Source: an uncultured bacterium
Lineage (GTDB): Bacteria > Patescibacteriota > Gracilibacteria > BD1-5 > UBA2023
Direction: 5' to 3'
NCBI GenBank assembly: GCA_903908595.1
Contig: CAIVSN010000116.1
Span: forward strand, 454 to 64,453
Length of the DNA stretch: 64,000 bases
Shown here: piece by piece, positions 2,467-34,630 of the stretch
How the letters are laid out: every line of letters starts with the position of its first letter
Position numbering within the stretch: position 1 is the stretch's first letter
Made by a program: the position numbers and the translations under genes
The notes under the pieces: model-generated
What the model was told of the DNA's origin: nothing
What the model saw: the letters and a program-made list of their open reading frames with translations, nothing else
Databases searched by the model: none

Positions 2467-2874
2467 TTATTTTTCTTCTTTCGGGAGCTTATCGGGAATA
2501 ATTGCAGGAAGGCTTTCATTGCTTTTTTCGATAATGATGTACGCGCTTCCGATGTTTCCCGCGGCGTCTTTGGCCGTGACGACGATCGGGGTGAACTGCC
2601 CCTCGAGGGCTCTCATTCCGGCTCATTCGACGACGATGAGTTCCGGGGAAGTTTTGTCGTCCGTGACCCGGACTTGGACGTCGATGGCATCTCCCGAAAC
2701 GACCTGATCGTTCCGGTAGTTCACGAATTCGATAGTCGGAGCCGTCACGTCGGGCTTCGGTTTGGCATATTTCCGGACGGACGTATACCGGTTGTCGGCG
2801 GAGATTTCGGACATTCACCAAAAGCAGAGCCCGGTCACCAACGCTATCGACACGAGTATGTTGAAATTTCTCAT
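2467..2874 (-). CDS. Small secreted/anchored protein (135 aa)
   Basis: Track ORF 2623-2814 extends across TGA 2815-2817 up to ATG 2872-2874 (MRNFNILVSIALVTGLCFW, signal-like). It also extends across TGA 2623-2625 down to TAA 2467-2469. The start lies 3 nt after the upstream gene's stop. The last ~11 codons lie inside a family-B repeat fragment. Confidence 0.55.
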
Positions 2875-2877
2875 ACG

Positions 2878-4269
2878 TTAGAATTTTTCGTGGTAAATAT
2901 GCTCGAATCCCCGGGATTTGAGCGCTTTGACGCTCGATTCCACCAATTGCGGATTCCCGCAGACATAGAACTCGCAACCCTCGGGGAAATCCAATTTCGT
3001 CACGTCGATCCTCCCCGTCTCAAAACCGGCGGCGGTTTCGCGGGAGAGGTACGTGACCGTTTTGAGGTTCGGAATTTTTGCGAGCCGGTCGGCATAGAAG
3101 CGGCTTTCGGAATCCCGCACGCCGAAGAGGAGGATCTTTTCGGTTTCCGGAATATGCGACATCATATTGACGATTGGCGCGAGCCCGGTGCCGGTAGCGA
3201 TGAACGCCTTCTTGGAATCGGTAGGCCGCAGGACGAAAGAACCGGAGACGTTTTCGATTCGCAGCGTATCCCCGACTTTCAATTTTTTCAGCGCGTTGCC
3301 TCCTCTCCCTTCGGAAATCCTAATGCAGAAGGTCAGCTTCGACCGATCGGAATCCACGACGGAATACGGGCGGACGAACGTGCCGTCCCGATCCGAGAGC
3401 ACCACCCGGGCGTATTGTCACGGGATGACCACGAACGGCGTGGCCGTTTCCACCACGAGTTCCATGGTCGTGGAATTCAGCATGGCAATCTGCCGCACCG
3501 GAGCGTCTACCGGCTCCCGGTCGTCGGCCGGCTCGGAAACGGGCACGAAATCCCTTTTGGATACCCCGCAGACCGGGCACGCCCAATCGTCCGGGATGTC
3601 CTCGAACTTCGTCCCCGGCGCGATGCCGCCGTCCGGATCCCCGAGTCGTTCGTCGTAGACGTACCCGCATGGCACGCAGAGGTATTTGGTAACGGGTTTT
3701 CCCAATGGGTTCGCTTGCCCCTTCCGGGAAGCGTCCTTGCGGAAAAATGCCACGGTCCGGAAAAATATCACGGCGCCGATAATCGCCATATACCATTCGT
3801 CGAACCTCGAAGCGAAGGCGATATGGAGCGCCGCCATGAGGAAGAGCGGGTACGCGAGGGTTTGGATTTTTTTCCAAAAACCTTTCAGCAACCGCACGGA
3901 AACATCGTTGGAAGTGACGCCGAGCAGGAAAATTATCACAAATGCCACCGTCCCCGAAGCAACGTCCAGTTCCAAGAAATGTTCCAGGACGAAGAAGGTT
4001 TTCTGGTATGCGTATTCCGCGTAGAAATATACCGCCATATGCCCGATCGCGAGCAAAAAGGCAAAAATCCCGAACGTTCTCCGATACGGCGCCCAACCGG
4101 GGCGTTCGGTCAGGGCGATGATCGGGGTGACCGACATCGCGAGGGCGAGATACAGGAAAGAAACCCTCCCAAAATCCCGAAGCAGCAGGTTCGCGGTTCA
4201 TGGGTTCATCGCGTAGAACGTGACAAAAAGGACGGCTCCGGGAACAAGGGAAAGCAGGTATCGGGTCAT
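2878..4269 (-). CDS. Fusion protein: ferric-reductase-like transmembrane domain + rubredoxin + FNR-type FAD/NAD(P)-binding oxidoreductase (NOX/FRE-like architecture)
   Basis: Same-frame track ORFs 3418-4137 and 2878-3405 are joined by TGA 3418-3420, and extend upstream across TGA 4198-4200 to ATG 4267-4269. TM part: [11 protein letters not shown]...LHIAF. Rubredoxin knuckles: CVPCGYVY...WACPVCG. FNR motifs: RPYSV, GTGLAP, CGNP. Ends in TAA. Confidence 0.8.
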
Positions 4270-4305
4270 GGAAAAAAATGAGGTCGGTTACCGTATTATG
4301 ATGCT

Positions 4306-4400
4306 GAGGTTTGCCTTGGGAAGTCAGTTTACTTTCGAGGCAGAGGTTTGCCTTCCTTGGAAGTCAACTCGCCTTCTAGTCTGAGGCTTGCTTGGAAACG
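4306..4400. repeat. Three imperfect direct repeats, GAGG(T/C)TTGC..TTGG(G)AA, in the intergenic region upstream of the ferric-reductase fusion gene
   Basis: gaggtttgccttgggaagtca (4306-4326), gaggtttgccttccttggaagtca (4343-4366) and gaggcttgcttggaaacg (4384-4400), spaced roughly 37-41 nt apart. Confidence 0.5.
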
Positions 4401-5384
4401 CTAGCTCGCCTTCGAAGTGGTATCGACTTTTGGAACGTACGGGGCTTGCACGGGAGTTTTCGCGGCAGCTTGGGCTTTTGCCTGGGCTACGGCGGCGGCT
4501 TGGGCCCGCGCCCGTTCTTGCTCTTGCCGGATCGCGGCCGAATTGTCGGCCGGCGCGGCGGCTTGGGCTGGCGCGGCGGCTTGGGCTGGCACGGCGGCTT
4601 GGGCTGGCACGGCGGCTTGGGCCGGCGCGGCGGTTTGGGCTGGTGCCGTCTTGGTGTCGTTCGCGGCGGGAGCCTTGGGGGATTTCGCCAGGGCCGGGAC
4701 GGATTTCCTCGGCTTCTTGACCATGACGGGAGGCTCGTACTTGTTATTTATGTCGATGTAGGCGACCAAGGATTCCTTGGTGGGGAAAAACGCGGTTGAG
4801 AGCGTGCCGTTCGGCCTGCGGTACATGTAGGAATCCCTGGTCCGATTGTCCACGATACCGTAGGCCTTCCCGTTCGGGGCGACATAGTCCCCCAATTCCC
4901 TGATATCCGGATTGTTTTCCCTCAGCATAAGCAACAGCGCTTCGTAGTCCTTGAATTTTTTCGAAGAAAACGTCCCGTCGGGCCTCTCAAAAATGTACGC
5001 GCCGCCGTACAGCCGGTGGATGACGTAGGTTTTCCCGTTCGGAACGACGAATTCCACGGGAACGTTAGCTTCCGGAGGCAGGGGCAAAACGACCGTTCCC
5101 GAAGCGGAAACCGGCGTCGTGCCCGCGGGATCGCTTGCCGGCGACGGAGCTGGCACGGGTACCTGCGTAAATTGATATTCGCCATAATCGTCATCCGCAT
5201 CCTCATGTTCGTCTTCATCCTCGTCGTCTTCATCGCTGTCCGCGTGGGCTACCATTACCAACGGCTTGACATTCCAAAAATTCCCGGCCACTTCCTTTTC
5301 TTTCAGGGAAACGATTCCGAAAAAAGAAACGCCCCAAAGCAGGAAAATACTCCCGATTACCACGATTCGCAAAGAAGTTTTCAT
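4401..5384 (-). CDS. Secreted/anchored protein with an acidic stretch and a C-terminal (PAQAAx)n Ala/Pro-rich tail
   Basis: Intact track ORF of 327 aa. It has an N-terminal hydrophobic anchor (MKTSLRIVVIGSIFLLWGVSFFGIV), a DSDEDDEDEDEHEDADDD run and five 18-nt tandem repeats. Ends in TAG. Confidence 0.7.
   Translation of the reverse strand: MKTSLRIVVIGSIFLLWGVSFFGIVSLKEKEVAGNFWNVKPLVMVAHADSDEDDEDEDEHEDADDDYGEYQFTQVPVPAPSPASDPAGTTPVSASGTVVLPLPPEANVPVEFVVPNGKTYVIHRLYGGAYIFERPDGTFSSKKFKDYEALLLMLRENNPDIRELGDYVAPNGKAYGIVDNRTRDSYMYRRPNGTLSTAFFPTKESLVAYIDINNKYEPPVMVKKPRKSVPALAKSPKAPAANDTKTAPAQTAAPAQAAVPAQAAVPAQAAAPAQAAAPADNSAAIRQEQERARAQAAAVAQAKAQAAAKTPVQAPYVPKVDTTSKAS
4552..4642. repeat. About five tandem 18-nt units inside the CDS, encoding PAQAA(A/V)
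   Basis: gcNcggcggcttgggcNg is repeated head-to-tail and can be read directly in the sequence. Confidence 0.85.
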
Positions 5385-5446
5385 AAAATGATTGAAATAA
5401 CGGGATGCAACGGATGAAATTATACGAATGGAATCCTAATAGAAAA

Positions 5447-6361
5447 TTAATACGCGACGGTTTCCGGAAAATCGAGATCGTATTTTTCCCAGAGTCACCG
5501 GGTGTAGAGCAATTCCCCGATAGAAGTGAAAATGAACCCCTCCATGCCGTTTTGCTCGATTATCCGCAGTCACTCCGATACCGGCGCGTTGAATACGCTC
5601 TTGGTGAAGCCGTCGCACTTGGCGCAATCCGGAGATATGAGCGTGACGCTGACGATCGAATTTTCATTTTCCGAAGTTTTCGGATTGACGATGTGGTGCC
5701 GCTTTTTCCGTCCGATTTCCCAGTTGCGCTTGTAGCTTCACGAGGTCGCGATCGCCGAATCCCGAAGCACCAGGGAGGTGAAGATTTCTTGGGTGAACGG
5801 ATTCTCGATGCCGATGACCCATCCCCTGTCCAGGCTCCCGTTCGTCCCGCTCGCGTAGATATCCCCGCCCGCATTCACAAAAAAATCGTCATAGCCGTAC
5901 ATCCGGAGCATGTCGCTGGCCCGGTCGACGGCCCAGCCCTTGGCGATGCCGCCAAAATCCAACGACTGCCCAGGTTCGAGCGTCACCGTATCCCCTTCGG
6001 TTTTCACGGCATGGAAATCGGTATTCACCGACCCGTTGACCGTGACGAAATTCCCTTCCTCGAAAGAATGGCCGTACCCGAGCTTGGCGACGGAAACGAG
6101 CGGATTGAAGAACCCGTCCGTCAGCCGGTACATGTTTTTGGAGACGCTCAGGAGTTCCAAAAACCGCTTGGAAACGGTCGCTTTCTTATGGGCGTTGAGC
6201 AGGCTCAGCGCGGAGTCCTCCCGGAACCGTGAAAATTCCGCCTCGACCGAAACGAAAAAATCGAAAACGGCGGCGATTCGCCCATCGGTAAGCGGATCTT
6301 CGGAAATGACGGCGATTTCTATTTCCGTCCCCAAGAGTTTTCTCGTTTCGGAATATCTCAT
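5447..6361 (-). CDS. apbE: FAD:protein FMN transferase (ApbE family)
   Basis: This is the C-terminal part of track ORF 5738-6724, starting at ATG 6359-6361 (MRYSETRKLLGTEIEIAV...). It reads through TGA 5738, 5570 and 5495 to TAA 5447-5449. ApbE-like blocks: FNPLV, DFGGIAKGWAVD, NAGGDIY, 'AIATS[TGA]SY' (canonical ATSG), 'HHIVNPKT'. No signal peptide is seen. Confidence 0.85.
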
Positions 6362-6590: not shown

Positions 6591-7508
6591 CTACACGACG
6601 AATCCGGTGACGGAACCACTCTCGCGGTCGTGCATCTCGATCCTCGACGCGCTGAATCTGAGCTGGCCATCGTGGAACCTCCAGATTGGCGCACAATGGA
6701 ACGTGCCTTCCAATCCGATGACATACTCGTCTCCCGCGCATTTCATCCAAAGGTCATCCTTCGTCTGAAACCGCTCCGGATGAGTCAGGAGGAAAACTCC
6801 CGTCTCATAGGCGCCCAATCCGAATTCGTGCCTTCCCATGACTGCCCGTGCCCGACGCACGGAACGGCCGCGGTGACGGAATCCGAGTTGGGCCGGGAAC
6901 ACCAGGATGTCAGAGTTTTGTTTTTGTCGCATGGCATGCATGGCACGCGCTTTCCGTTCCGTTTCCCGCATGTGACTTTCCCCCAACCGCCGTTCCCGGA
7001 AGTTGATGAAACGTTCTCCATGCGCGAACCGAATCATGTCGAATACGCGTTCCACTGCCTTTTCGTATGTCTCTCCCACCGAGGCCCAATGCGGGATGGC
7101 GTACCATCCGTTCCTGTCTGACCCGATGGGAAGCTCTTCTTCTTCCCGAATCCGCAAGAGCCGCTCCGGGTCGGAATTCCGGAATTTCGGAAACAGCTCA
7201 GTAAGCCGGTCGATTTGATCCGCCAATTCCCTCGTCCGATAGGACGGGGGATAGGTGGAATTCGTATCGACTTCTTCGTCGGCGTATTCGTCGGGGCAAA
7301 GATGGCGCGATATGGCCGATCCCATTGCCGGCGAGATATCCGATTGGAATTGTCCCCCGTTTTCCAATACCCGTTGCAGTTCCTCTTTCGAGGGGTTCAT
7401 CTTCTCAACCAGTTTGGCGACCGTTTTGCGTGCGGCCGATTCTGCCAATTGCGTGAGTTGGGCTACTTGCCCTGACGTGATCCCGTAGGTCATCATCGAC
7501 TCCTTCAT
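6591..7508 (-). CDS. Hypothetical protein (305 aa)
   Basis: Intact track ORF with a TAG stop and no in-frame TGA. No family recognised. Confidence 0.6.
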   Translation of the reverse strand: MKESMMTYGITSGQVAQLTQLAESAARKTVAKLVEKMNPSKEELQRVLENGGQFQSDISPAMGSAISRHLCPDEYADEEVDTNSTYPPSYRTRELADQIDRLTELFPKFRNSDPERLLRIREEEELPIGSDRNGWYAIPHWASVGETYEKAVERVFDMIRFAHGERFINFRERRLGESHMRETERKARAMHAMRQKQNSDILVFPAQLGFRHRGRSVRRARAVMGRHEFGLGAYETGVFLLTHPERFQTKDDLWMKCAGDEYVIGLEGTFHCAPIWRFHDGQLRFSASRIEMHDRESGSVTGFVV

Positions 7509-21066: not shown

Positions 21067-21094
21067 CTTGCAAACCCCGGCATATATGATACTA
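21067..21094 (+). promoter_or_regulatory. Candidate promoter of the giant gene (TTGCAA-N16-TACTAT with an extended -10 TG)
   Basis: -35 TTGCAA 21067-21072 and -10 TACTAT 21089-21094, with TG at 21086-21087. It lies about 30 nt upstream of ATG 21125. Confidence 0.45.
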
Positions 21095-21124
21095 TGGCCC
21101 CTAGAAAGATATCCGATCCCTTCC

Positions 21125-24100
21125 ATGTCCGTATTTCCCAAACCAAGCAGGCTCAAAAAATGGGTTTCCTCACTCCTCATTTTTACCATGTTCGCGAGCC
21201 AGACGGTGCAATTCCCGTTGCTGGTTCCCAGGATCTTCGCGGAAGGCAGCGACGTTCCGAATTTGGTATCGATCATCGTCAGCGAGTCCGTCTTTACTGG
21301 CAACACGAAGGACAAAATTTCCCAATATTCCAAGGATATCCAGGCTTCGATGACCAATACCCGGGTCGTCATCGTGAACGTGCCCGACAACATCGCCCCG
21401 CACAGCATCGCGGCGCTCAATGAAAAACTCTACTACGAAGGCGACGGCGACGGGATTTCCCGGCTCGTGGGGACCGTCCTGATCGGGAAACTCCCGATTC
21501 CCGTGGTCCACAACGGAAGCAAGAGCTTTCTCAGCATCTATCCGTATACCGACTTCGACGAAAAGGTCTTCATGTTCGACGTGGAGAAGGGCTACTACGA
21601 GGCTGGAAGCGGACCCGTGGAGCATGACAGCCCAGAAATCTGGCACGGGGTCATCCAGCCGAATTCCGGGGATTCCGCCACCGACCGGGCCAAACTCGAA
21701 CAGTACCTCGACAAGACGCACGATTTCTATGCGAAGCAGGGGGTGTTCGCCAACATGAGCCAGACGCCCTACGTTTTCTATCTCGACATCACCCACGACC
21801 AGGAAGCCGCGAGCGCTTCCAATTGGAAGGCGTACAACCTCGGCCTCGAATACCTGGAAGATCTTACCTACAAGCGCTTCAACAAGCACCTGGCCAAAAC
21901 GCTGTACGACAAGTTCCAGGGCATGCAGGATTCCACGGCGGATCTGACTTCCGAGGAAAAAGCCGAGCTCGGGGCCGCTGGGGTGGACATTCCGCCGATG
22001 GCCGATTCCATGGATTTTTCCAGTTCCCCGGACATCCAGACCCGCACCGCCATCACCGAGGTAACGAAGCAGTTCTTCGAGATTTTCAACGAAAAATACC
22101 TCGGGGACATCCTCAAGTTCATCTACAACACGGGAAGATACGGCGACGGGAGGGATACCCGGGCCGATATCGCTCCGGTACTGGTATCCAAGCGCGACGA
22201 ATTCATGAAGCGGGTCATTAAGGACAGCAATACCGCGCTCGAAAACAGCATCGACCAGCTCGTGAAATCCGGCCTCGCGATCGATCTGGCCATTCCGACC
22301 GACGTCAAAATCACCAAAACCGGCTCGGGCGCTGACGCCAACAACCCCGTTCCGCCGATATACCGCAATTACTATTATGGGAAATTGGCGAGTTCCATTA
22401 CCAACGCGAAGGAGTGCTCCATCGTCCGGGGTTCTACGCTCCCGGTCGAAGCGAACCGGGGATACAATATCCTCAACGTCGAGCCGGATTTGCAGAAGCT
22501 TACCCAATATTCGACGCTGTGCTTCCCCGGAGGGCTTCCCGCGACGATGGACTGGTGGGGCGGCAACAGCCCGCTCAACGTGAAGACCGATTCGTTCACG
22601 GCGGCGGATTTGGCGATCTTGCAAAGCGCGACGGGCGGAACGGACCTCTCCGCCTACGAAGGCAAGCTCTCCACCAAGTTCGAGCTCAAGGGCAACGTCT
22701 ATAAGGATTACGTCATCCAGACCTTCGATCTCCTGGGGCAAAGCGAAATCTCGCGTACCGGAGCGCTCCGCGTCAATTCCCCGTCGGATTGTCTCGCCTC
22801 GAACTATATCGCGGATCCGTTCGTCGGAAAATCCGAGGATGGGATGTCATTTTCCCAATTCCAGCATCCGCAGACTACGGGGGGGACGCAGTTCGTCTGC
22901 GTGATGCGGGACAGCAAGGGGGTGCTCGGCCACAAGTTTTTCGTGCAATCCAGCACGACCCTTTTCGCGGACGCCATCGCCGACCGGATCAACCCGCCCC
23001 TCTGTACCGTCGTCAAAGTCAATCTGGTGGGAGGTTTTTCCAAGCAGTTCGGACGGCTGTGCGATGAAGAAGTACCGGTGGCGACCACGGGAAACGGAAC
23101 GGGAGAATCCTCCGGAACGGAAACGGTGACGACCGGGACGACCGAGGAGTACGACTTCAAAAAGATATCTTCCTGGATCGTCCACAAATCCCCCACGGAC
23201 GAAGAATACGGGGCCGCCGTCAAAGGCATGACCACTCCTTCCCTCGCGAGCGACGGGGACCGCTACATCGACTTCATGGGCCCTGCGGGAACCGTCCAAA
23301 AAATCGTCTATCCGAATTTTTTCCGGCTGAACAACCAGTCCTACGAGGCCGCGTTGGCAACGGCAGGAACCTGAGGCAGCACGTTTTTTGGCGATCTCGT
23401 GACCGTCGTGGACCACTCCCTCGCCTCGGCCGGCTGAGGCACCGTGGCCAACACTGGGGCCAGCCTGCTTTCCGGCAATATGCCCGACCTGACCATCGAT
23501 ATGGTCAAAGATTCCATCAAGGCGGTCCTCGATAAGAAAAGCGCCGAAATCAACGCCATTATCAACGCGCAGGATCCGGCGCTCCTCACCGGGGATCAGG
23601 CCGCGATCTACCAGCTCATGAATACCGGCGCCTATCCGGCCGCCAACGTCGATCTCTATACGATGGTCGCGAGCAGCGGGAACATGCTCACGACCCTGGC
23701 GGATACCATCCTCTGGTACAACCGCACCAACGCGACGAGCAAGTATTCGTTCATCCTCGAGAATTACCTCGACCGCGACGGGAACCGGGACTACCCGCTT
23801 TCCGGGCACCATTCCGATTATGAAATGGGATACATCGGCGGACCCGGCGACGCGCAGAACATGTACGTCAAGGTCGACCCAGAATCCAAAGGCACCCTGT
23901 CGAAAGACATTACCGACATCCAGGCCGACTACGGTTCCCTCGTAAACCTGCTGGACGCCGCGAACGTCGCCGAGTACAGTCCCGAAGATTCCCAATTCAA
24001 GTGCGGGCCGCCGGAGGGCGTGGTCATTTGGAAATGGCTTCCTGCCGTCTTCTGCTGGCTCGGGACGATTCTCCCGCCGACCATTTCGGCCGGATCCTGC

Positions 24101-27100
24101 GGACCGCAACTCGGCTCCGATACGGACAAGGGGCAAGACCGCGATTTTTTCACTTCGATTCCGGGCACGGACGGCAAGCTCGCCTGGCAGCAAGACCTCG
24201 ACCATAACGGAATCCTCGACGGATACGAGTGGGTCAAGGACGGGGAAATCAAGCTTGCCGCTTCTCTCAAGCGGATCGGATACCGCTCGGGCGCGGCGCT
24301 GACGGCCGATCTCACGAAGGACGGCCGGATTCTCGCCCACGATTCGTACAACCAGGTATTTTTCGACGTCAAGAAAATCACGCTGCTGAAGGGTCAGAAC
24401 GATCTCGAAGGCAATCCGGTGACTTCCGACAAGATCGTCTACGTCCGGGGAGGAACGGGAGCCGCCGGAAGCATCGAGACGCTCAAAAAATACGTTTTCT
24501 TCACGCCGATCGCGGTCCGGGCGGAGGCGGGAACGGCCACCTACGGCATCCAATCCATCGACCGGGACATCGATATCGATATCGTCGCCACCGTCGCTCC
24601 GAAAGACAAAAACGGAAACGTCGCCTTTTCCAAGGATTCCAATCTCATTACCCTCAAAGTCCGGGACGAAGCGCTCAAAATCGGTACGGAAATCCAGGAA
24701 ACCACCGGAACCGGATCCCGGGTCGATCCGACCTTCAAGGCGGGAGACGCGAGCAAAATCACCTTCAAGTTCACGGTATCCGGGAAAAATCCCGAAACGC
24801 CGACGGCCGCGAAATCGCCCATCAAGATCAAAATCCTCGACGACGTCGACGGAACGGAGCTTACGCCGAGGCCGGCGGATATCGGCAGCGACACGTTCAT
24901 TTATGCCGGAAACCTCCTGAAACAGGCCGGGAATTACCGGTTCGAATTCGTCGACGCGGAAGACCGGTACGGCACCGTCATGGTGAACGTCCTCCCGGGC
25001 GACCCATTCAAGATCGAAGCCGTAGCGGCCTCGAACATGTTCGTGAAAGGCCAGAAAAATATGGTCCTCGTAACCGTGAAGGACCGATTCGACAACTACG
25101 TCAAGGGGGACTTGCTCCAGGTCGCCGGCACCGTCGACGGGGGCGCGTATTTCACGGAAAACCACGATGCCGCCAATTCGAAAAGCACCGTCGAAGGCGT
25201 ATTGAGCTTCGAGATGAGCGCCGACGCCGGAAGCACGGGCAACAACACCCACAAATTGGATTTCAGCACCGTCGACAGCAAAGGCGCGACCATCAAGATG
25301 GCCACGCCGCTGACCGTCCAATCCATCGACTACGCCAAGATCCAGGTAAACGTCGCGAACCGCGGCAGCCTGGTGGCCGGAGGTTCCGGACAGACCGTCA
25401 CGCTCAAGATTACCGACAATCTCGGGCAGGTATTGACCGGGTTCAACGGGGTCGCCAGTCTGGATTTTCCGAAAAATTCCGGATTCTTCAGCACGCCGTT
25501 CGTCCAAATCACGAACGGGACCAATTCCGGCGCCCTGACCTTCACTCCGGGAACGGTCGCGATCCTCGATGCCAAAATCGACGTGCAGGTCCCCGGGATC
25601 GTCGACGTGGAAGGCGGAACGCTGAGCATTCTCCCGAACGTGCCGATGCGCGTGGGACTCCTCTCCGATACCGCCAAATTCGAAGCCAAGGTCGGGAATT
25701 CCGCCGGGATTACCGCGCAACTGTTCGACCGGTACGGCAACATCGCCTACAATCACCCGGCCGGAATGTCGGCGAATTTCACGATTCCGAGCGGTTACGG
25801 CAAGTACGGCAGCATCAGCGGGGGGAACGTGCCATTCGCGAACGGGGAAGCCAAGGTCCAAATCAATTCCAGCAGCAGTCCGGGCACCCTCTATTATATG
25901 GTGGAAGTCGCTCCCGGACTCGAAACGAATACCTTTACCATAGAAGGGGAAAATATCGACACGACCCCTCCGACGAAAACTTCCGTCACGATCAAGGGGT
26001 ATTCCAAAAACGTCGCCTACATCGAGAGCTACTACCTGTGGAACGCGGAAAAACTCGCGAAAACCAACTACAACGTCCTCTCCACCACCCTGCTCGGGGC
26101 CGACTACGGAAACGTCACCGTTCCGAACTATCTCGCGGGCGAACTGATTTTCAATTCCGGCAGCTCGTCGATGGCGGTCACGACGCTCCTGGGCAACGCC
26201 GAAAAGCGGGACGAAATCGTCCAGATGACCCCGGGAGGAAAAATCGTCCTCGACCGGGGCCAGACGGCCGAAGTCCAAATCGGTTCCAACAAGAACCGGA
26301 CGACGCTCGATATTTTCGACCCGTTCAAACGGGAAAATATCGGAAGGTTCTATCTCAATACCAGTCCGGCGACGCCGACGTTCGCATGCGCCACGGACGA
26401 AGCGGACGAAATCGACGCCTGCGACTTCCAGGGCAAGGAATCCTATATGGTCCTCAAGGGATTGGGCGAGGCCGAAGTGACGAAGATCGGCAACCGGCTC
26501 AGCCTCGGTTTCGACGGCATTCCCGTCTTCGAAATTTCTCCGGACGGAACGATCACCAAGTATCCGAACGTCACCGTGGAAGCGGACGGGGAAGAAAGCA
26601 GGAATCTCCTTTCGCTCTCCATCGTCAGCAGCGGCATCAAAATCGGACGGCTCGGCATCAAGTGGGACGCTCCGGAGATTATCGTCAGCTCCCCTTCGAC
26701 CCTCGACGCAGCGCTCGCGAGCCACCCCGGCACCATCGTCTACGAGGGCATTTCTCCCCGATACGGCATCAAACAGGACAACCTGGGGAATACTTCCGCG
26801 GGAGACAAGGGCCTCAAGATTTTCGCCCAGAGCGAAGACGTGGAGACGGACCGGGATCTCATAGGATCCTCCGGCAAGCTGGGATACGAGGAATACGCCA
26901 AAAACAAGGGGATCGGATTCGGCGACGGCAACAACACCCAACTCGAATTCGCGAGCCAATCCACCGTCGGGCAATCCGCCAAATCCTTCGCGACCTACTC
27001 CGAAATCGTCATCGGCGACCCGGTCGCGAGGCTTCCGGAAATCCTCTCTCCCCAGAACTTCGACCGAACCCTGGGAAAAAGGCTCATGAGCAGCGCCGGC

Positions 27101-30100
27101 GGAATCATCGAATCCTATTCGACGATCGACTACAACCGGGACAACATGCAGGACATCGTCGTCTTCTACCAGGACGGCAAGGTCGAGCTCCTGCAAAACT
27201 ACCGGTGAACCTACAAGAGCCTCGGCTATCTCCTCTACGTCTTCGACGCGGGCAAGGAACGCAAGGGCGCGGGGGATTTCAACGGCGACGGCTACGGGGA
27301 CTTGGTCATGGTGGACCAGGACGGCAAACTCATCGTCATCCAAAACCGAAAGGGCAAATTCGTCCGCGTACCCGCAAAAATCATCGACCAAGCCGGTGCC
27401 GAAGCCAAAATCGGCGGATCCGTCATGCAGCTGGAAATATTCGACATGGACAAGGACGGCAAAACCGACATCGTCATTTCCGACGATTCCGGAGAATTGA
27501 ACATCCTCTACGGCGGCGGCACTCCGGACGACGTCGTTTTCACCAAAAAATTGCTCGACGACGGCATCGGAATCAAGCTGGGAACCGGGGAATTCACGAA
27601 CGGCGGGGCGATCCGTTTCGACGGCATCAAGGAAATGACCCCGTTCACCCAGACCGGGTACGTCATGGAAACCGAGGCTTCCAGCGCGGACGCCGACGTC
27701 GAAACACTCAGCCTTCCGGACCAAATCCGGCTCTTGGACAGCAAAATCTACTACCAGCAAACCGTCTACGAGGAAGTTCAGAACCCGGCGGAGGCCCAGA
27801 ATATCCGGCTGCTCAGCGGAGTGGGCGACGATCCGGACAATCCCGGCGTCCCTAACCAGGCGCTCGCCGATGAGATCAGCCAGACGATTCTCGATTTGCA
27901 GAACCAGGCGGCGAGCGGCAGCATCGACACGAGCGAACTCACGAACGCGACGATCGAAAAGCAGCGCTCGTTCCTCCGATCCGAATTCGCGGACGGAAAA
28001 GACATAAAAATCGCAAAAAAATATACCGATAGCAACGGCGGGTTCCTTCAGGCGGGGGATCCGATCCTGGTAACGATCGACGTGACCAATGCCGGAAGCG
28101 CTCCCCTTTCCGGAGTCATCTATCTCGACAGTTACGAAAAATCCGTGTTCCAGCCGGGAGAAAACGATTCGTATGCCATTTACGGCGGGTCGGGCAGCAT
28201 GATGGGAACCGGGGCTTTCGCCGCCTTCACGGGAAGCACGTTCTTCGACGAACTGGCAACGGTCGTGGACCATTCATTGTCCGCGGCCTCGGGCGGCTGA
28301 TCGGCCGGAAGCGCCGCCGCCACGGGATCTGCCCAAGACGGGCTCATTGGCACCGGCAGCCTCGACCAGCTCACCGAAGGGGAATTCGACTTCCAATTCG
28401 GAACGCTGACCATCCCCGTGGGCCAGAAAATCACCATCAAATACCTCCTCAAGGCCAATGCTATCTCCGTCGGGAAATTCCACGTGGGCGTACTCGAAAC
28501 CGATGACATATACGGGGACGTCAGCATGAACGCGAACTCGGTCTGCTGAGACCAGGAATGGCTTTGGAAATCCATCGTACCGACTCCGAGAACGTATTCG
28601 GCAAGAACCCTCAGGGATATCCCGGAGAGCGGCGACGTAGCCGGTACCCAAAAGGGCAAGTTCACCGATTTCAACGGCAACGGATCCCCGGACTATATCG
28701 ACCTCCTTTCCGGAACGGGCGGTAACGATTCCATGGCGTCCTCGCTCTGGGATCCAACGCGACACGGGATCCTGGTTTTCCGCGAAACCTCGACCGATAC
28801 CGGGCTGGACGGAACGAATTTCGAAGTCGGACGGGTCGTCTCCAATTCCGAAACGGGGTACGTCCAACTCAACCCCGTATCCGTAAAGGAAGACGTTCCC
28901 GTTCTCGCGACGCCGGCGCTCGCCAACGGGACGATCAACGGAAACGAACTCGGCGCCGGAAGCGTCAGCAACGTCCTGACCGGAAGCGTTACCAATACGC
29001 TGATCACGACCGCCTGCGGACAACCGGGCACTTCCGTTTCGGATCTCCGGCTCACGGGATACCGGCAGATCTATCATCCGAGCGTCATGTCGGACATTAC
29101 GGGAAACCTCTCGCTCGTCGCCGTCGGAACGTCGAAAACCCTCGACGCTTCTGGAAGCGTCATCGGTACGGGCGACTGCATGATCGACATCAATTCGACG
29201 TCGAATCCGGCATGGGACGGTACCAAGGTCACCGGGCTCGGCTGGAAACTCCTCACCAAGGGAACCTTCCAGCACTTCAGCCTCGGGGGCACGCAATCCA
29301 ACCTCATCGCCGAGTCCGTCGGAATTCCCGACAGCCACGAACCGCTCGGAAGCGATTTGTTCACGTTCGAAAGCGATGGGTCGCTCATCGGGGGAACCGT
29401 CGACATCGGGGGCATGTCGGACGAAAACATCGACAAGGTCAACGGGGCCATCGATACCATCGTCCAGGGCCTCGGGTGCGGATTCGGAGGAGGTAGCTGC
29501 CTCTCCATGCCGATGAACTGGGCCCCTCTCGCCCCGGGTTCCGCTCCGGTCGTCATGGGATTCCCCATCGGGGGACTCAGTCCGTCGACGGGTTTCCCGG
29601 TATTCAGCAGCCTCACGGGCATCCAGACGATGTGCGGCAAATCGCCTTGCTGCATACCGAGCGTTTTTCCCATAAGCCCCCTCGCCTACGTACCCGGACC
29701 GGCTTGCGGATCCCCGAGCGCCGGAGGATACCTGGGCACCTGGGCGCCAACCAACACGTTCCGCTTCTATATCACCCCGACCATCACGGGAGCCGTGGGA
29801 ATCGCCGCGTGTTTCGGAGGTACGGCCATGGTTACCGGACGAATACCGCCACAGGCCGTATCGCCGCTCGTGCCGGGAGGCAACTGCGTCGTCGCGGCCA
29901 AGCCGCTCCTCGGCTGCAAGGACGACGGTTCCGACGGGACGTTCGAGGACTTGTGAAGCACCGATAACGGAACCCTCAATGCCGGATCCTGCAAGAACCA
30001 ATCCGACGAGGAAACCGTTTCCGCCGAAGACCAGGAAAAAATCCGAGCCTTCGTCCGCGGCGACAATACCTTCGTGAGCGATATCGTCAAAAATGCCGCG

Positions 30101-33100
30101 GGCCGCGGAAGCATGATTATTCCGAACGGTCCCCTGCTCTCCATCTGAGGCCGGGGCGGAAGCGGAGCCGGCAGCTTCGAGCTGGCCATCGATCTCAAGA
30201 GCATCAAGAACTTCGATATCGGCATCATCACCAAAATCAGCAACCAGCGGGTTTCCGCGTTCCCGGATTTCATCATGGACTGGGTCAACCGCCAATTGGA
30301 AGAAGTCGCCAACAAACTCACGAGCCTCCCGACGCTGTATATCATCAAGCCGGATTTCCGAGGCGTCATCGACGGCAACTGGAACGGGTTCACGGAGAAG
30401 CTCGGGAAAGCCTACGGTACCGGAAAGAAAAACGGCAGTCCGGTACTCGGCAACGAAAACGCCGGCCGGAGCATTTCCGGCGTCAAGTCAGCCTACGAAT
30501 TCATGTCCCGGCTCCCCCTTATCAAATTCGAGAAAACGACCCTGGACATCTCCTATCCGGACATCGGCCAGGAAGACCTCAACAAGGCCCTCAAGAATCT
30601 CAAGAATACCAAGGCCCAATGGGAGCGGGAGATTTCGAGCAAGAAAGCCCTGTACGCGGGCACGTTGACCGCTACCGGCATGGACGCGAGCATTATCGTC
30701 CGGTCGGAATGACTTATCAGCAGCATCAACCAGAACATCCGAACGATAGAGGAATACAAGAAATTCCCGGAAAAACTCGCGAAGTACCTTACCTGGAAGG
30801 AACGGTATGCGGCGCAATTGCTCTGCAATATCACGGCAATCCAAAACATGCTGGACAGTTTCATTACCAAGAATGCCATCCGCTTCAAGGCCTGGGTCGA
30901 GTTCTTCGAACTGCTCAAGAACATCCTCAAGGGCTGGCAGCTCATCCCGGACCTCTTCTACAAGAACGAGGCCGAATGCGGGGTGTGCCGCAACGAGCGC
31001 TACGACGCGAAGCATTTCATGTTCAAGCTCATCAAGGCCATCATACCGCCGCTTCCGATCATCAAGTTCCCGAAGTGGCCGGACATCATCTTGGACCTCC
31101 ACAACGTTCGGCTCGGCCTCCGCATCGCCATGCCGGAATTCGTGTTCCACCCGACCCCGATCGTCCTTCCGAGATTCCCGAATCTCGCGTTGCCGACGCT
31201 TCCGAAACTGGGCATCGGTTTGCCGAGCATTCCGACGCTTCCGAGCCTGCCGCCGTTACCGGAATTGCCGGATATTCCGTCGCTTCCGCTCATCACCCTT
31301 CCGGAACTCCCGCCGCCGCCGACCATCCCGAAGCTCTTCGGAGCCATCAAATTCACGTTGAACATCCTCAAGATCATCGCGAAGGTCCTCTGTATCATGC
31401 GTTCGAATCCGTTCGTGCCGGAATGGCGCGCCGGAGACCAGATTGCCCAGATTACGGAACGGCAGGGCAAAATGAAGCTCGACTTCCTCAATATCGAATT
31501 CCCGCAGTTCAACGCGAGCTTCGTCGATGCCATCAAGGTGACGACCTACGTGAATTTCGAGTTCCAGATCGACTTCCTCCTCGAAATGGCCAAAGCCACG
31601 TTCGAACCGATCAACGCGTTCACCTCGAACCTCTCGAACATCGTTCCGAACGCGACCAAGGACATCCTTCCGAACAAAGTGGACCTCCGCGGGCTCAATC
31701 CGGGCAACCAGAAAATCCAAATCGGTCCGACCGGAATGGAAGGCAAAAACCCGTTCGTCAAGCAATACGCCCAAACGTTGGCCCAAGCATTCGTTACGAC
31801 GATCAAGCAAGGACAATTCTACGCGAACGAATCGGCGGCCTACGAGGAAATACGGGAGAATCTCGCCGACGAGCTCGCCCATACCCACGCGACCCCGGGA
31901 ACCCCGGGATTCGCCATCCTCGAAGAAATGCGGGAAGGACTCCGGATTCGCGGCGATGCCGAAGCCGAAGCCCTCGCGACCGAACTCCGAAGGGACAACG
32001 ACGAAAAGTTCAACCTCGCGAACGGTTTCGTCAAATCGGAGATGCACGAAATCACGGAACTCCAGGCCCAACTCCACCTCGTGCAAACCGGCAAGAAGGA
32101 CCTCTCGGATATTTTCGGGACCCGGAAAAGCGGGGGAAATGCCGAATTGACGGATTCCGCGAACCCGTACAGCACCGAATCGGAACTTCCAGATTTCACC
32201 AAATTCAACGAACGGGCCTACGTCGCCTATTCCGAACTCCTCGCACCGAAGCCGGACGACGAACTCGTGACCATGGGAAAAAATCTCAAGGACAGCATGC
32301 AAGCCTATTCCGCGGAAGCCGAGAGGAAGTCCGCCGAATACTGAGCCGGAACTGACATTGCCGGCGGAGGCGAACTCGCGAATTACGAATACCGCGGCAT
32401 TTATACCAAGGACAACGGTCGGCAGATCCGGCTCTTCGATTACACCAACGACCTCATGGGAGACGAGAGAGCCGTCCAGGTCGACCGGCTCGGAAACGGG
32501 GCGATAGAATATATCTACCTGAGCGGGGACGGATTGTATCTCAAGACCAAACTGGGGAATTCCGGAACCTCGGCGACGAGCGGAAGCGCTTCCACGGGCG
32601 GAACCGGTTTCTTCGACGAACTCGGCACCGTCGTGGACAATTCCCTGTCCATGGCTACGGGAGGAACTCCGACTGCCAACACCGGAGGTGGGACTTCGGG
32701 CAGCGTCACGACCAGCATTCCCGTCTACCGGCTTTCCGGCATCATCGATCTTCCGAATTCCGAAACGTTGCGGCCGACCGCGCCGAACCGTTTCGTGGAA
32801 AGATTCGTGGCTTCCGGGGAAATCAACTTCTCGTTCCGGCCGGCCGACTTGGTCAACGACACGATTTTTCGAATGGAATTCTACGATTATATCGATCGCT
32901 TCGACCTGCGGATGAGTGGGAAAGACTGGAAGGATATCGCGCCGACCACCCGGGTTTCCTACGTGGATCTCGTCCCGGAATTCACGGGCGAAACCGTGAC
33001 GGACGCTTCCAATACCGGCATCATCCTCCAAAAACCCTATGCGAAATACTTACAGGGAACCGGGAACGGATTCATCAGCGGGGCGGACTACCGCACCCTC

Positions 33101-34630
33101 TGAGCCGGCTCGAAGATTCAGGTTGCCGCGAGCAAATCGATCTATGCTGACGGAGGCGGAGCGAAAATCGCGTACAAAATCGCCGACAGCGCGGCTTCCG
33201 TTACGGGCAGCACGGTGACCATACCGAATTCCGGAGAACTCAAATTCTTGGACAACATGGACATGGAAGTCCTGAACGGAAACGTCATCCTCATTAACGA
33301 GAGTTCGAGCCCCGTACGGCGGCCACAGGATTTTCAGAAACTGAACGGGCTTCCCGTCATCCTGGGTCAGAAAATAGAAATTCCCGCGACGACGGCCCGG
33401 CTCAATATCGAGTATTACAACGGCGCATCGCTCCGCATGGACGGGCCGAGCCTCTATGAAAGCCACGAGCTCGGAGCGAAATCCGACGAATATGACGTGT
33501 CGCTCCGCCAGGATAACGGCTGGTACTACGCCAGGCTCGAAAGCGTTTCGCCGAGCCCCCGGACCAGTACGCGGATCACGCTGCTTTCGCCACAAATGGA
33601 AGCCGACAAGGAAGCTCCGCTCATCGAGGTCGCGGGAGGATTCCGGGCGCCGGTCTATCTCGACCGTGCCATAGACTTACGCGAACAGATTACGGACGTT
33701 TCCGGCATCAGCGACGTGTTTATCGACACGGATCTCGCGGCCGATTCCGACCGGGATGGGCAAATGGACAACGACCGGGATTCCGACGCGGCCGGATCGA
33801 TATTCAGAAAGGGCAGCTCCAATCTCGAATGGATCGTCAAAGCCCAGGATCGACTGTTCGAGAAGAAAATCAAAATCTGGGCCGGGGACGAAAGCGGAAA
33901 TTTGGCAGGAACAGAGACGGATCTCCGCATCTATGCCCCGGTTCCGAATATTTCGACCCAATCGGGAACCACGATTTTCGGAAACCTCGACGAGTCGTTG
34001 GACGGCGAACCGACGGATATCGTCCGGTACCGCAACGGCAAGATTTCCCCTATCGGCAACGCGGCGCTTACCCAGAGCGGCGGGGAATTCCTCAATACCT
34101 TCGGCACGAATACCGGAATAGCCATCAGATGACCGTCGGGCGAATTGGCAAAAATCAACGAAAACACCGGAAAACTCACCCTGAGCGGCAGCGAGAACGA
34201 ATTCGTCGTCCTCCCGGCCAACGCCGACGTCCCGATGCGGATCGAAATCCAGAAGAAATCGGATCATTCCGTCCTCTACTCGCAATCCGTAGCACTGGGA
34301 AGCGCCGGGAAGATAGAACCCGTGTCCAGCCTCGCGGAAGCTCTCGCCAAAGCGAAATGAGGCCTCGGCGTACGTCTCGATGCCGGATGGAATTTCGTCC
34401 GGAACCCGGGCAATAGCCCGTCGCTTCCAGGAGGCATATTCGTCACGGACGCGGACATGAAACCGGTGTTCGGTATCGCCAAGGATGGCAACGTATACTT
34501 CCTGAAATCCTCTGGACTCAGCCTGAAATACGGAACCGAACAGGACTACTTCGTCATCGAAGTCCGCGACGCGGACCATCTCGTCGGAACCCTCTATTAC
34601 GTACTCGATGCCGAATATGTCATCAAATAG
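21125..34630 (+). CDS. Giant secreted surface protein (~4,500 aa) with FG-GAP/VCBS-like, Ig-like and DUF11/CARDB-like segments and a Pro-rich region
   Basis: Nine frame-2 track ORFs (21068-23374, 23444-27208, 27302-28300, 28733-29956, 30275-30712, 30818-32344, 32456-33103, 33215-34132, 34145-34360) are separated only by 12 in-frame TGAs. The first TAA/TAG in frame is TAG 34628-34630. Signal-like MSVFPKPSRLKKWVSSLLIFTMFASQ. FG-GAP-like GDFNGDGYGDLVMVDQDGKL and DMDKDGKTDIVISDDSGEL. Pro-rich LPSLPPLPELPDIPSLP. Confidence 0.85.

Follow-up and report, generated by a model that had tools for sequence, protein, structure and literature searches.

Four same-strand genes at positions 2467–6361 (minus strand) of a 64,000-nucleotide (nt) stretch of contig CAIVSN010000116.1, from an uncultured bacterium of the Gracilibacteria, probably encode a device that carries electrons from the cytoplasm to the outside of the cell. 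The genes specify an ApbE flavin transferase, a 327-amino-acid (aa) membrane-anchored protein, a 463-aa fusion of a ferric-reductase-type membrane domain with a rubredoxin and an FNR-type dehydrogenase, and a 135-aa anchored protein; the whole 64,000-nt stretch is referred to below as the window. Judged from sequence, we put at roughly 60% the probability that the four genes together make up a transmembrane module for electron export and represent a lineage-specific form of the 'MsrQ-like' systems associated with ApbE, in a candidate phyla radiation (CPR) bacterium that uses genetic code 25. Electron export had already been suggested in a first-pass annotation of the same DNA, and it is still the best reading of the locus.

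The proposed path would begin with the oxidation of cytoplasmic NAD(P)H by the FNR-type domain, which binds flavin adenine dinucleotide (FAD). Single electrons would pass from FAD to the Fe(Cys)4 centre of the fused rubredoxin, and from there into the six-helix domain of the MsrQ/STEAP type, probably via a flavin at Arg63/Arg64, as in Escherichia coli MsrQ; they would then reside at a single outer heme b held by His77/His149. The acceptors outside would be flavin mononucleotide (FMN) groups that the co-encoded ApbE attaches covalently to anchored proteins and lipoproteins. In the window, the FMN site would be the C-terminal Ser of the heptad DTTSKAS on the 327-aa protein, and the orthologues would have a second site in an FMN_bind domain. 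The tethered flavins could in turn pass their electrons to something outside the cell, for example Fe(III), O2, or a component of the host or of the cell surface, and NAD(P)+ would thereby be regenerated in an organism without a respiratory chain. We infer the cofactor content, the direction of flow, the flavinylation of the heptad, the flavinylation site and the final acceptor from the comparisons described below.

The fusion protein and its membrane domain

Under the standard bacterial code (table 11), the coding sequence at 2878–4269(-) is broken into two open reading frames (ORFs), 2878–3405 and 3418–4137. The fusion frame, which terminates with TAA, holds two in-frame TGA codons, codon 24 (4198–4200) and codon 284 (3418–3420). 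The latter falls on the Gly of the FNR motif 'PGQ' ('VVIP-x-QYARV'), a residue that is Gly in all FNR-type proteins, and one of the three in-frame TGA codons of apbE, codon 208, falls on the Gly of the universally conserved 'ATSG'. Many database homologues have Trp at conserved Gly positions ('PCWYIYD', 'WTWLAPI'), which is the signature of translation with code 4. Taken together, these positions indicate that TGA is read as Gly, and on their evidence the genome of the window uses code 25, as do Gracilibacteria and Absconditabacteria. The database labels of its nearest relatives are Candidatus Gracilibacteria or a Patescibacteria metagenome-assembled genome. Once TGA is translated as Gly, the order and spacing of the gene run agree with the first-pass description, including the small protein (135 aa, 2467–2874) that starts 3 nt after the stop codon of the fusion.

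Code-25 translations were scanned against Pfam with the gathering scores as cutoffs, and residue conservation was taken from alignments of 32 and 40 homologues. Four families were found in the fusion above their gathering scores: Ferric_reduct (PF01794) at residues 34–146 (42.8 bits, cutoff 28), Rubredoxin (PF00301) at residues 195–241 (77.6 bits, cutoff 23), FAD_binding_6 at residues 267–345 (23.4 bits, cutoff 21.1) and NAD_binding_1 at residues 356–446 (36.6 bits, cutoff 22). The three-part architecture proposed at the outset is thus real, and every motif quoted in its favour (CVPCG, CPVCG, RPYS, GTGLAP and CGNP) is present. The rubredoxin cysteines are conserved among the homologues (C198, C231 and C234 invariant, C201 in at least 90%), and all four are predicted to be the Fe(Cys)4 ligands of the fused rubredoxin. 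Conserved residues of the FNR part include R300-x-Y302-S303, GTG-AP, C437 and the C-terminal F463. The fusion architecture recurs in about 83 sequence clusters, and the NCBI label for these is merely 'rubredoxin'. A scan of genome contigs with the single fusion protein gave at least one close relative (L001), and a profile search of metagenome contigs with the fusion alignment gave a full-length match in one contig only (L002), the remainder being ordinary rubredoxins.

An AlphaFold2 model was made of P0002, a homologue 60% identical to the window fusion. It has a mean predicted local distance difference test score (pLDDT) of 88.6 and consists of six long transmembrane (TM) helices, a low-confidence linker, the rubredoxin and the FNR domain. 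The best whole-chain Foldseek match of this model is full-length Streptococcus pneumoniae NOX (SpNOX, 8qt6, E = 8e-20), and the FNR part matches the FNR, SpNOX dehydrogenase and NqrF domains with a root-mean-square deviation of ~2–3 Å. In sequence, the closest families of the FNR part are the BenC, MmoC and AntC-type reductases. These enzymes carry a 2Fe-2S ferredoxin directly N-terminal to the FAD domain, whereas the fusion has the rubredoxin in that place. By analogy, this position suggests that the rubredoxin does the same job, namely, to serve as a one-electron relay after FAD. A rubredoxin relay of this kind is plausible for a membrane domain without an inner heme, whether or not the Arg pair holds a flavin.

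The membrane domain differs from what had been expected. The first-pass annotation compared the protein with the NOX/FRE enzymes; the overall layout is indeed theirs, with SpNOX as the best fold match, but the two-heme character of NOX/FRE proteins is not found, as there is a single conserved His pair. Within the alignments R63 and H77 are invariant, R64 is Arg or Lys, Q136 is Gln or His, and at least 90% of the sequences keep H149. Alignment by MAFFT with E. coli MsrQ (NC_000913) equates R63 with R77, R64 with R78, H77 with H91, Q136 with H151 and H149 with H164. With respect to NOX2, H77 corresponds to H115 and H149 to H222, while the position of H101 is taken by the invariant Arg63 and that of H209 by Gln136 (His in some homologues). 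Consequently, of the two heme-ligating His pairs to be looked for, one is present (H77, H149) and the inner-heme pair is replaced by Arg63 and Gln136. According to the rule given for YedZ/STEAP proteins, a conserved Arg takes the place of the first His of TM3, a Gln is found in TM5, and only the surface-proximal heme is retained (Zhang 2013, PMC3591440). In E. coli MsrQ, FMN is held by R77/R78, is reduced by an NAD(P)H reductase of the FNR family and relays electrons to the heme (PMC12525009). Given the Arg/Gln signature and the single conserved His pair, the membrane domain belongs, on sequence criteria, to the MsrQ/YedZ/STEAP subgroup of the ferric reductase superfamily and not to the two-heme NOX/FRE type. 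H77/H149 are the predicted ligand pair of a single heme b, and R63/R64 the putative counterpart of the MsrQ FMN-site pair. The best NCBIfam match of the membrane domain is MsrQ itself (NF003831), at 57.6 bits against a cutoff of 130, that is, below the equivalog level, and neither the window locus nor 12 related loci yielded an msrP gene. With a score below the equivalog cutoff and no MsrP gene nearby, the fusion is, by sequence, not an MsrQ orthologue. A second heme bound through H97 was considered and rejected, because this residue is located in the outer loop and its conservation is limited to the 11 closest sequences. His97 (window 3979–3981, in the loop between TM3 and TM4) is not a ligand of the inner heme; on the outer face it may serve as a clade-specific ligand or as a site for a substrate.

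A signal-less ApbE and a conserved C-terminal heptad

The ApbE of the window matches PF02424 at 186.5 bits, and the protein begins just 9 residues ahead of the domain. Its maximal Kyte-Doolittle value over 19 aa is 0.85, with no hydrophobic stretch and no lipobox. When aligned to the structures 1vrm and 6nxi, it retains 'ATSGSY' and 'HHIVNP', the latter with the catalytic His. Ten ApbE orthologues share the start position, a few residues before the conserved 'LGT', and none has a hydrophobic N-terminus; the absence of a signal peptide noted at first sight is therefore borne out here and in the other loci. Database matches with at least 38% identity are 295–304 aa long if full-length, and the N-termini inspected among them have no signal peptide. 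An upstream start that would give ApbE a signal peptide was rejected, as the sequences upstream of the orthologues contain in-frame stops or are non-hydrophobic, and the start is common to all. Outside the CPR, the nearest ApbE relatives, P0183 (Bacillus pseudomycoides) and P0184 (Tumebacillus), are 308 aa long and also signal-less, and they hint at a wider clade of cytoplasmic ApbE. In another database entry, P0133, the first ~115 residues of ApbE are fused in frame to an acidic, FMN_bind-containing and tagged protein, which may reflect a deletion or an artefact of gene calling, or else a natural fusion of enzyme and substrate.

Related loci were translated with code 25, and 13 of them, the window included, have readable flanks (Table 1). 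In 11 of the 13, apbE is found no more than a few genes from the fusion gene, so that the linkage on which the first-pass annotation hinged is conserved. The recurrent module comprises apbE, an anchored protein with acidic and linker regions, the fusion and the small anchored protein. Homologues of the 135-aa protein lie directly downstream of the fusion in L001, L002, L082, L087, L088, L091 and L092. In L083 (9733–13196) and L095 (1306–6984) apbE and the fusion are separated by a response regulator and a histidine kinase; besides these, a PepSY_like protein bearing an acidic run is encoded in L083 and a guanylate-cyclase-like protein in L095. These two-component insertions suggest that the module is under environmental regulation in some lineages. 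Two genes downstream of the module in L087 (5587–6138) there is a Flavodoxin_2/FMN_red protein, which is not among the ORFs with the strict heptad described below.

Table 1. Gene arrangement and C-terminal heptads at loci encoding the fusion
Locus	Fusion identity to window	Arrangement	Heptad of anchored protein	Additional small tagged protein
Window		apbE linked; full module	DTTSKAS	
L001	73%	apbE linked; full module	DTTSKAS	
L092	59%	apbE linked; full module	DTTTAAS	
L091	47%	apbE linked; full module	NTTTRAS	64 aa, lipobox LTSC
L088	45%	apbE linked; full module	DTNTRAS	56 aa, ending NTWTKAS
L087	44%	apbE linked; full module	NTTTRAS	
L093	40%	apbE linked; full module	NTRTSAS	
L002	44%	apbE linked; apbE, fusion, small protein		
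L089	40%	apbE linked, divergent from fusion	NTRTRAS	67 aa, lipobox LSGC
L083	43%	apbE linked; two-component system between apbE and fusion	DRVSQAS	
L095	36%	apbE linked; two-component system between apbE and fusion	DTTTKAS	
L085, L086	33–36%	apbE not nearby; redoxin/rhodanese neighbours		
L082	48%	begins at fusion gene, hence uninformative; excluded from the 13		

The second gene of the module encodes the predicted exported protein that had been described as acidic and Ala/Pro-rich, and this description is accurate: its 327 residues consist of a hydrophobic N-terminal anchor (TM helix, residues ~4–28), an acidic run, a disordered linker, a tandem 'PNGKxY...F.RPDG' domain (residues 110–220), a linker rich in Ala, Pro and Gln, and the terminal heptad. 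The protein has no Pfam or NCBIfam match. Its AlphaFold2 model reaches a pLDDT of ~95 for residues 110–220, with a disordered tail, and a Foldseek search with this model returned nothing significant, the best matches being polo-box domains (E ~0.01, TM-score ~0.1). The Asp/Glu run after the anchor (window 5180–5260, residues ~48–70) recurs in every orthologue as well as in the PepSY_like protein of L083, and might bind cations or metals or dock on the outer face of the fusion.

The minimal motif recognized by ApbE is a 7-mer, D-x-x-[ST]-G-A-[ST], which works best as a terminal tag and in which a D→A change is tolerated and a G→A change is partly tolerated (PMC12052999). Unstructured C-terminal extensions of FMN_red proteins from Firmicutes are flavinylated as well (PMC11334425). 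The canonical core [ST]GA[ST], for which the neighbouring proteins were to be searched, is absent from them in the window; instead, the variant heptad DTTSKAS stands at the extreme C-terminus of the 327-aa protein and agrees with the 7-mer at six of seven positions, with Lys replacing Gly. Exported proteins that end in [DN]-x-x-[ST]-x-A-S followed by a stop codon, and that begin with an N-terminal anchor or a lipobox, are encoded at 10 of the 11 apbE-linked loci. Of the 5582 ORFs with a length of 50 aa or more in 91 loci, 12 terminate in the strict pattern, each of them located beside the fusion gene; a looser pattern was found in 3 of 4602 ORFs in unrelated loci.

A word-indexed search with the complete 327-aa protein gave one match, as low-complexity words dominated, and was replaced by HMMER with the central domain. 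This exhaustive search of 1.84 billion representatives recovered 31 clusters only. A related heptad, in most cases K-V-[DN]-T-T-T-x-A-S, stands at the end of each of the 22 family members whose C-termini are complete, and 15 of these 22 additionally contain canonical FMN_bind motifs (e.g. DTVTGAT). The heptad mirrors the canonical site within the same proteins (VDTVTGAT versus VDTTTKAS). The orthologues of the 327-aa protein in L001, L092 and L095 carry FMN_bind (PF04205), that of L001 above the Pfam threshold. By comparison with these sequences, the window protein has lost the FMN_bind domain carried by its close orthologues, and the form without it is confirmed by L097, an independent assembly of the same organism that is 99.66% identical over 6.1 kb. 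A single 18-nt gap separates the two assemblies: the 18-nt repeat encoding the (P)AQAA(V/A) linker has one copy fewer in L097, with a product of 321 aa as against 327 aa. In view of its conservation and its specificity to fusion loci, we regard DTTSKAS as a candidate flavin-attachment tag.

Direction of electron flow and competing explanations

A more specific proposal can be built on this candidate tag, although we advance it only tentatively and would not be surprised to see it fail. Gracilibacteria and Absconditabacteria may use a natural C-terminal flavin tag, [DN]-T-x-[TS]-x-A-S-COOH, that is flavinylated by a cytoplasmic ApbE before or during Sec export; the tethered flavins, reduced by the fusion, would carry electrons outward, possibly to a host, and would make up the main membrane redox device of CPR bacteria without a respiratory chain. 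If this is true, flavinylation in the cytoplasm removes the need for FAD export, and the flavins sit on long disordered tethers, on anchored proteins as well as on small lipoproteins.

Several observations weigh against electron export through tethered flavins. A signal peptide is missing from ApbE, whereas predictions place the tagged proteins outside the cell, given their N-in anchors, the lipoboxes on two of them and the Pro/Thr linkers, and we found no literature precedent either for flavinylation before export or for ApbE export by another route. The Gly position of the heptad is occupied by Lys, Arg, Gln, Ala or Ser; only G→A has been tested in the literature, with ~50% flavinylation (PMC12052999). 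In the window no FMN_bind domain was detected by Pfam or by tblastn with code 25. The distant fusion clade of L085 and L086 (33–36% identity) does not have apbE nearby. The geometry between the domains in the P0002 model is uncertain, with a predicted template modelling score of 0.57 and a rubredoxin pLDDT of ~70. Furthermore, rubredoxin potentials usually lie above those of covalent FMN, and transfer from rubredoxin to FMN could be uphill. For a multi-FMN protein, a potential of -184 mV has been reported (PMC12052999). The simplest, if speculative, way to reconcile this discrepancy in topology would be for ApbE to label the still unfolded pre-protein ahead of its export or in the course of it. 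Such labelling would fit the ability of ApbE to accept short unstructured tags, and a C-terminal tag would be the last segment of the protein to exit the cytoplasm. SecYEG tolerates small side-chain adducts.

Alternatively, ApbE could act purely in the cytoplasm, e.g. by covalent fixation or loading of the flavin at Arg63/Arg64 of the fusion or by modifying another cytosolic protein, with the heptad being an unrelated signal for sorting, processing or anchoring. All ApbE orthologues are without an export signal, cytosolic ApbEs with cytosolic targets are known from Klebsiella pneumoniae (PMC12052999), and MsrQ requires a flavin at its cytoplasmic face (PMC12525009). We nevertheless consider this explanation unlikely. 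The cytoplasmic parts of the fusion contain no flavinylation-like motif, their invariant Ser/Thr residues being the 'TS' of the ferric reductase domain (FRD), a rubredoxin Thr and those of the FNR motifs; the heptad resembles the canonical FMN_bind site of the very same proteins; and the FMN_bind domains on these exported proteins need an ApbE too. It is also quite unlikely, in our opinion, that the fusion works alone, either generating a membrane potential or proton motive force (PMF) or passing reducing equivalents onto O2 or reactive oxygen species (ROS), with apbE and its neighbours as mere passengers. Both stand-alone roles were proposed for the orthologous Vamp_33_45 in the redox passages of Moreira et al. 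(PMC8080830). The distant clade that lacks a nearby apbE adjoins genes for AhpC, glutaredoxin and rhodanese, and direct reduction of metals or O2 is known from the STEAP and NOX relatives. Yet apbE, the heptad-tagged protein and the small anchored protein accompany the fusion across 36–73% identity and in several gene orders, and the cell interior becomes positive when electrons leave NAD(P)H for the outside, as happens in NOX, which is the wrong polarity for PMF.

The polarity needed for a membrane potential would result if electrons flowed inward. In that case, NAD(P)+ would receive electrons from reduced extracellular or host donors by way of the tethered flavins, the heme and the rubredoxin, and a predator or epibiont would harvest reducing power from its surroundings. 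FNR modules are reversible, and relatives of this organism are host-dependent or predatory. However, the donors would have to lie near or below -320 mV, and the characterised relatives, namely NOX, STEAP, the pair of MsrQ and Fre and the MsrQ-like systems as proposed, all work outward; we regard inward flow as very unlikely. The least probable explanation, to which we assign only a slim chance, is an MsrPQ-like repair function, in which electrons from the fusion would go to a methionine sulfoxide reductase outside the cytoplasm, or to some other reductase, whose gene lies elsewhere in the genome. MsrQ is the best NCBIfam match of the membrane domain and the FMN-site arginines are conserved, but the score (57.6 against 130) is far from the cutoff, and a gene for MsrP or a molybdoenzyme was found in 0 of the 13 loci. 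Electron export to flavins attached by ApbE thus remains the reading that we favour.

Relation to known systems and other features of the locus

The architecture of the fusion, which the first-pass annotation did not recall as a standard one, has been recorded before in Vampirococcus and Absconditabacteria (Moreira 2021, PMC8080830). In the redox passages of that paper, Vamp_33_45 of Vampirococcus lugosii is described as an 'atypical tripartite' protein with 8 TM helices, conserved in Absconditabacteria/SR1 and uncharacterised, with ferredoxin-driven PMF generation or ROS detoxification as proposed roles. As described there, it resembles the window fusion in having a flavocytochrome-like membrane region, a rubredoxin and an NAD-binding ferredoxin-reductase-like domain, and it differs in its 8 TM helices, the window fusion being the 6-TM form of Gracilibacteria. 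Two database homologues, P0020 and P0029 (531–559 aa), have a longer N-terminus as in Vamp_33_45, and their loci carry apbE and tagged proteins. The redox passages of the paper contain no reference to ApbE, flavinylation, a single-heme MsrQ signature or partner proteins, the full paper not having been searched for 'ApbE'. No electron transport chain can be recognized in CPR bacteria of these lineages, and their redox balance and membrane energisation are an open question (PMC8080830). A CPR membrane redox protein that has been called 'atypical' is now tied to a set of partners: ApbE, tagged surface proteins and a small anchored subunit.

The 'MsrQ-like' systems are defined by a PF01794 gene in a cluster with ApbE or FMN_bind; they are mostly actinobacterial, have two heme sites, and are described with no mention of rubredoxin (Méheust 2021, PMC8238504). 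In the window apbE is located two genes upstream of the PF01794 fusion on the same strand, which agrees with the cluster definition, whereas FMN_bind and an ApbE signal peptide, which are also among the features of these systems, are absent; the orthologous loci L001, L092 and L095 encode anchored FMN_bind proteins. The present module shares with the MsrQ-like systems (PMC8238504, PMC11334425) apbE, PF01794 with a C-terminal PF00175, FMN_bind in the orthologues, and the proposed route from NAD(P)H to extracytosolic flavin. It differs from them in its one heme pair, its rubredoxin insert, its signal-less ApbE and the heptad, which replaces FMN_bind in the window and joins it in the orthologues. 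The survey of Méheust et al. covered ApbE and FMN_bind proteins with signal peptides only, and the CPR was strikingly under-represented in it (PMC8238504). Surveys that require a signal peptide on ApbE would miss systems of this kind, as would gene calls with the standard code, and this blind spot may partly explain the under-representation of the CPR with respect to extracytosolic flavinylation.

The pair of E. coli MsrQ and Fre (PMC12525009) has the same ligand positions for a single heme b, the same FMN Arg pair and a reductase of the FNR family; here, by contrast, the reductase is fused via the rubredoxin, no MsrP partner was found at the 13 loci and the score is below the MsrQ cutoff. The NOX proteins (SpNOX 8qt6/8qq7, NOX5 and NOX2) have a ferric-reductase domain of six TM helices and, after it, an FAD/NAD(P)H dehydrogenase, but four heme-ligating His residues (two hemes) and no rubredoxin, in contrast to the fusion with Arg63 and Gln136 at the inner positions. 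The engineered Flavin-tag (PMC12052999) and the FMN_red tails (PMC11334425) demonstrate that a terminal seven-residue motif suffices for ApbE, as proposed here. These motifs keep the central Gly, and those of FMN_red lie beside the flavin pocket, whereas the heptad stands at the exact C-terminus after disordered linkers and has Lys, Arg, Gln, Ala or Ser in place of Gly. The Listeria FmnB/PplA pair is similar in that an ApbE-type enzyme flavinylates a surface lipoprotein that passes electrons outside. FmnB, as described in the relevant passages of PMC9973259, is itself an exported lipoprotein and needs FAD export via an ECF transporter, unlike the signal-less ApbE encoded here, and the electrons in Listeria come from Ndh2 and quinones rather than from a fused NAD(P)H-rubredoxin-heme protein.

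What is already known, then, is the architecture of the fusion and, broadly, the class of MsrQ-like flavinylation systems into which the module falls. What is new is the combination of a single-heme MsrQ/STEAP signature with a rubredoxin relay, a signal-less ApbE and a locus-specific heptad, in a code-25 CPR bacterium without a respiratory chain; our literature search found no report of the linkage between fusion and apbE, of a consistently signal-less ApbE, of the heptad or of the loss of FMN_bind. Flavinylation of the heptad, if real, would make it a naturally occurring equivalent of the engineered Flavin-tag, its motif being relaxed in that the central Gly is lacking, and a new question would arise as to how a cytoplasmic flavin transferase serves exported substrates.

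The remaining features of the locus are listed with their coordinates in Table 2. The 135-aa protein has an N-terminal TM anchor, a conserved juxtamembrane 'S.DN.YTSVRKY' segment and a conserved C-terminal domain that looks Ig-like by eye; it has no Pfam or NCBIfam match. In the spacer before the fusion gene, three direct repeats had been noted at 4306–4400. Repetition is indeed present, in the form of ~2.5 degenerate copies rather than three (73–89% identical over 18–33 nt, at a spacing of 37–40 nt), and the repeats appear insignificant. An RNA element or riboswitch was rejected as their explanation, since there is no Rfam family, the fold has z = 0.79 against shuffled sequences, and the repeats are absent from the relatives' spacers. 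Probably, the spacer is only a promoter region.

Table 2. Coordinates of the module and its features in the window
Feature	Position	Strand	Remarks
apbE	5447..6361	-	304 aa; three in-frame TGA (Gly); PF02424
327-aa membrane-anchored protein	4401..5384	-	same ORF with code 11 or 25
18-nt tandem repeat, 5.3 copies	4548..4643	-	Tandem Repeats Finder; codes for hexapeptide linker repeat in 327-aa gene
Candidate C-terminal tag DTTSKAS + stop	4404..4424	-	last seven codons; candidate acceptor Ser327
Spacer, 131 nt	4270..4400	-	~2.5 degenerate repeats; one sigma-70-like hexamer pair (4322–4295)
Fusion, 463 aa	2878..4269	-	Ferric_reduct + rubredoxin + FNR; two in-frame TGA (Gly)
Six-TM ferric-reductase domain, residues 1–180	3730..4269	-	R63/R64, H77, Q136, H149
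Rubredoxin domain, residues 195–241	3547..3687	-	C198, C201, C231, C234
FNR-type dehydrogenase	2881..3471	-	FAD_binding_6 267–345, NAD_binding_1 356–446, C-terminal F463
135-aa anchored protein	2467..2874	-	two TGA (Gly) codons; start 3 nt past fusion stop

Directly upstream of apbE, at 6591–7508(-), there is a 305-aa gene that has no Pfam match and is not conserved beside the module in relatives. Farther away, positions 21068–34630 of the plus strand form a single ORF of 4520 aa under code 25, with 12 in-frame TGA codons, which presumably encodes a giant CPR surface protein.

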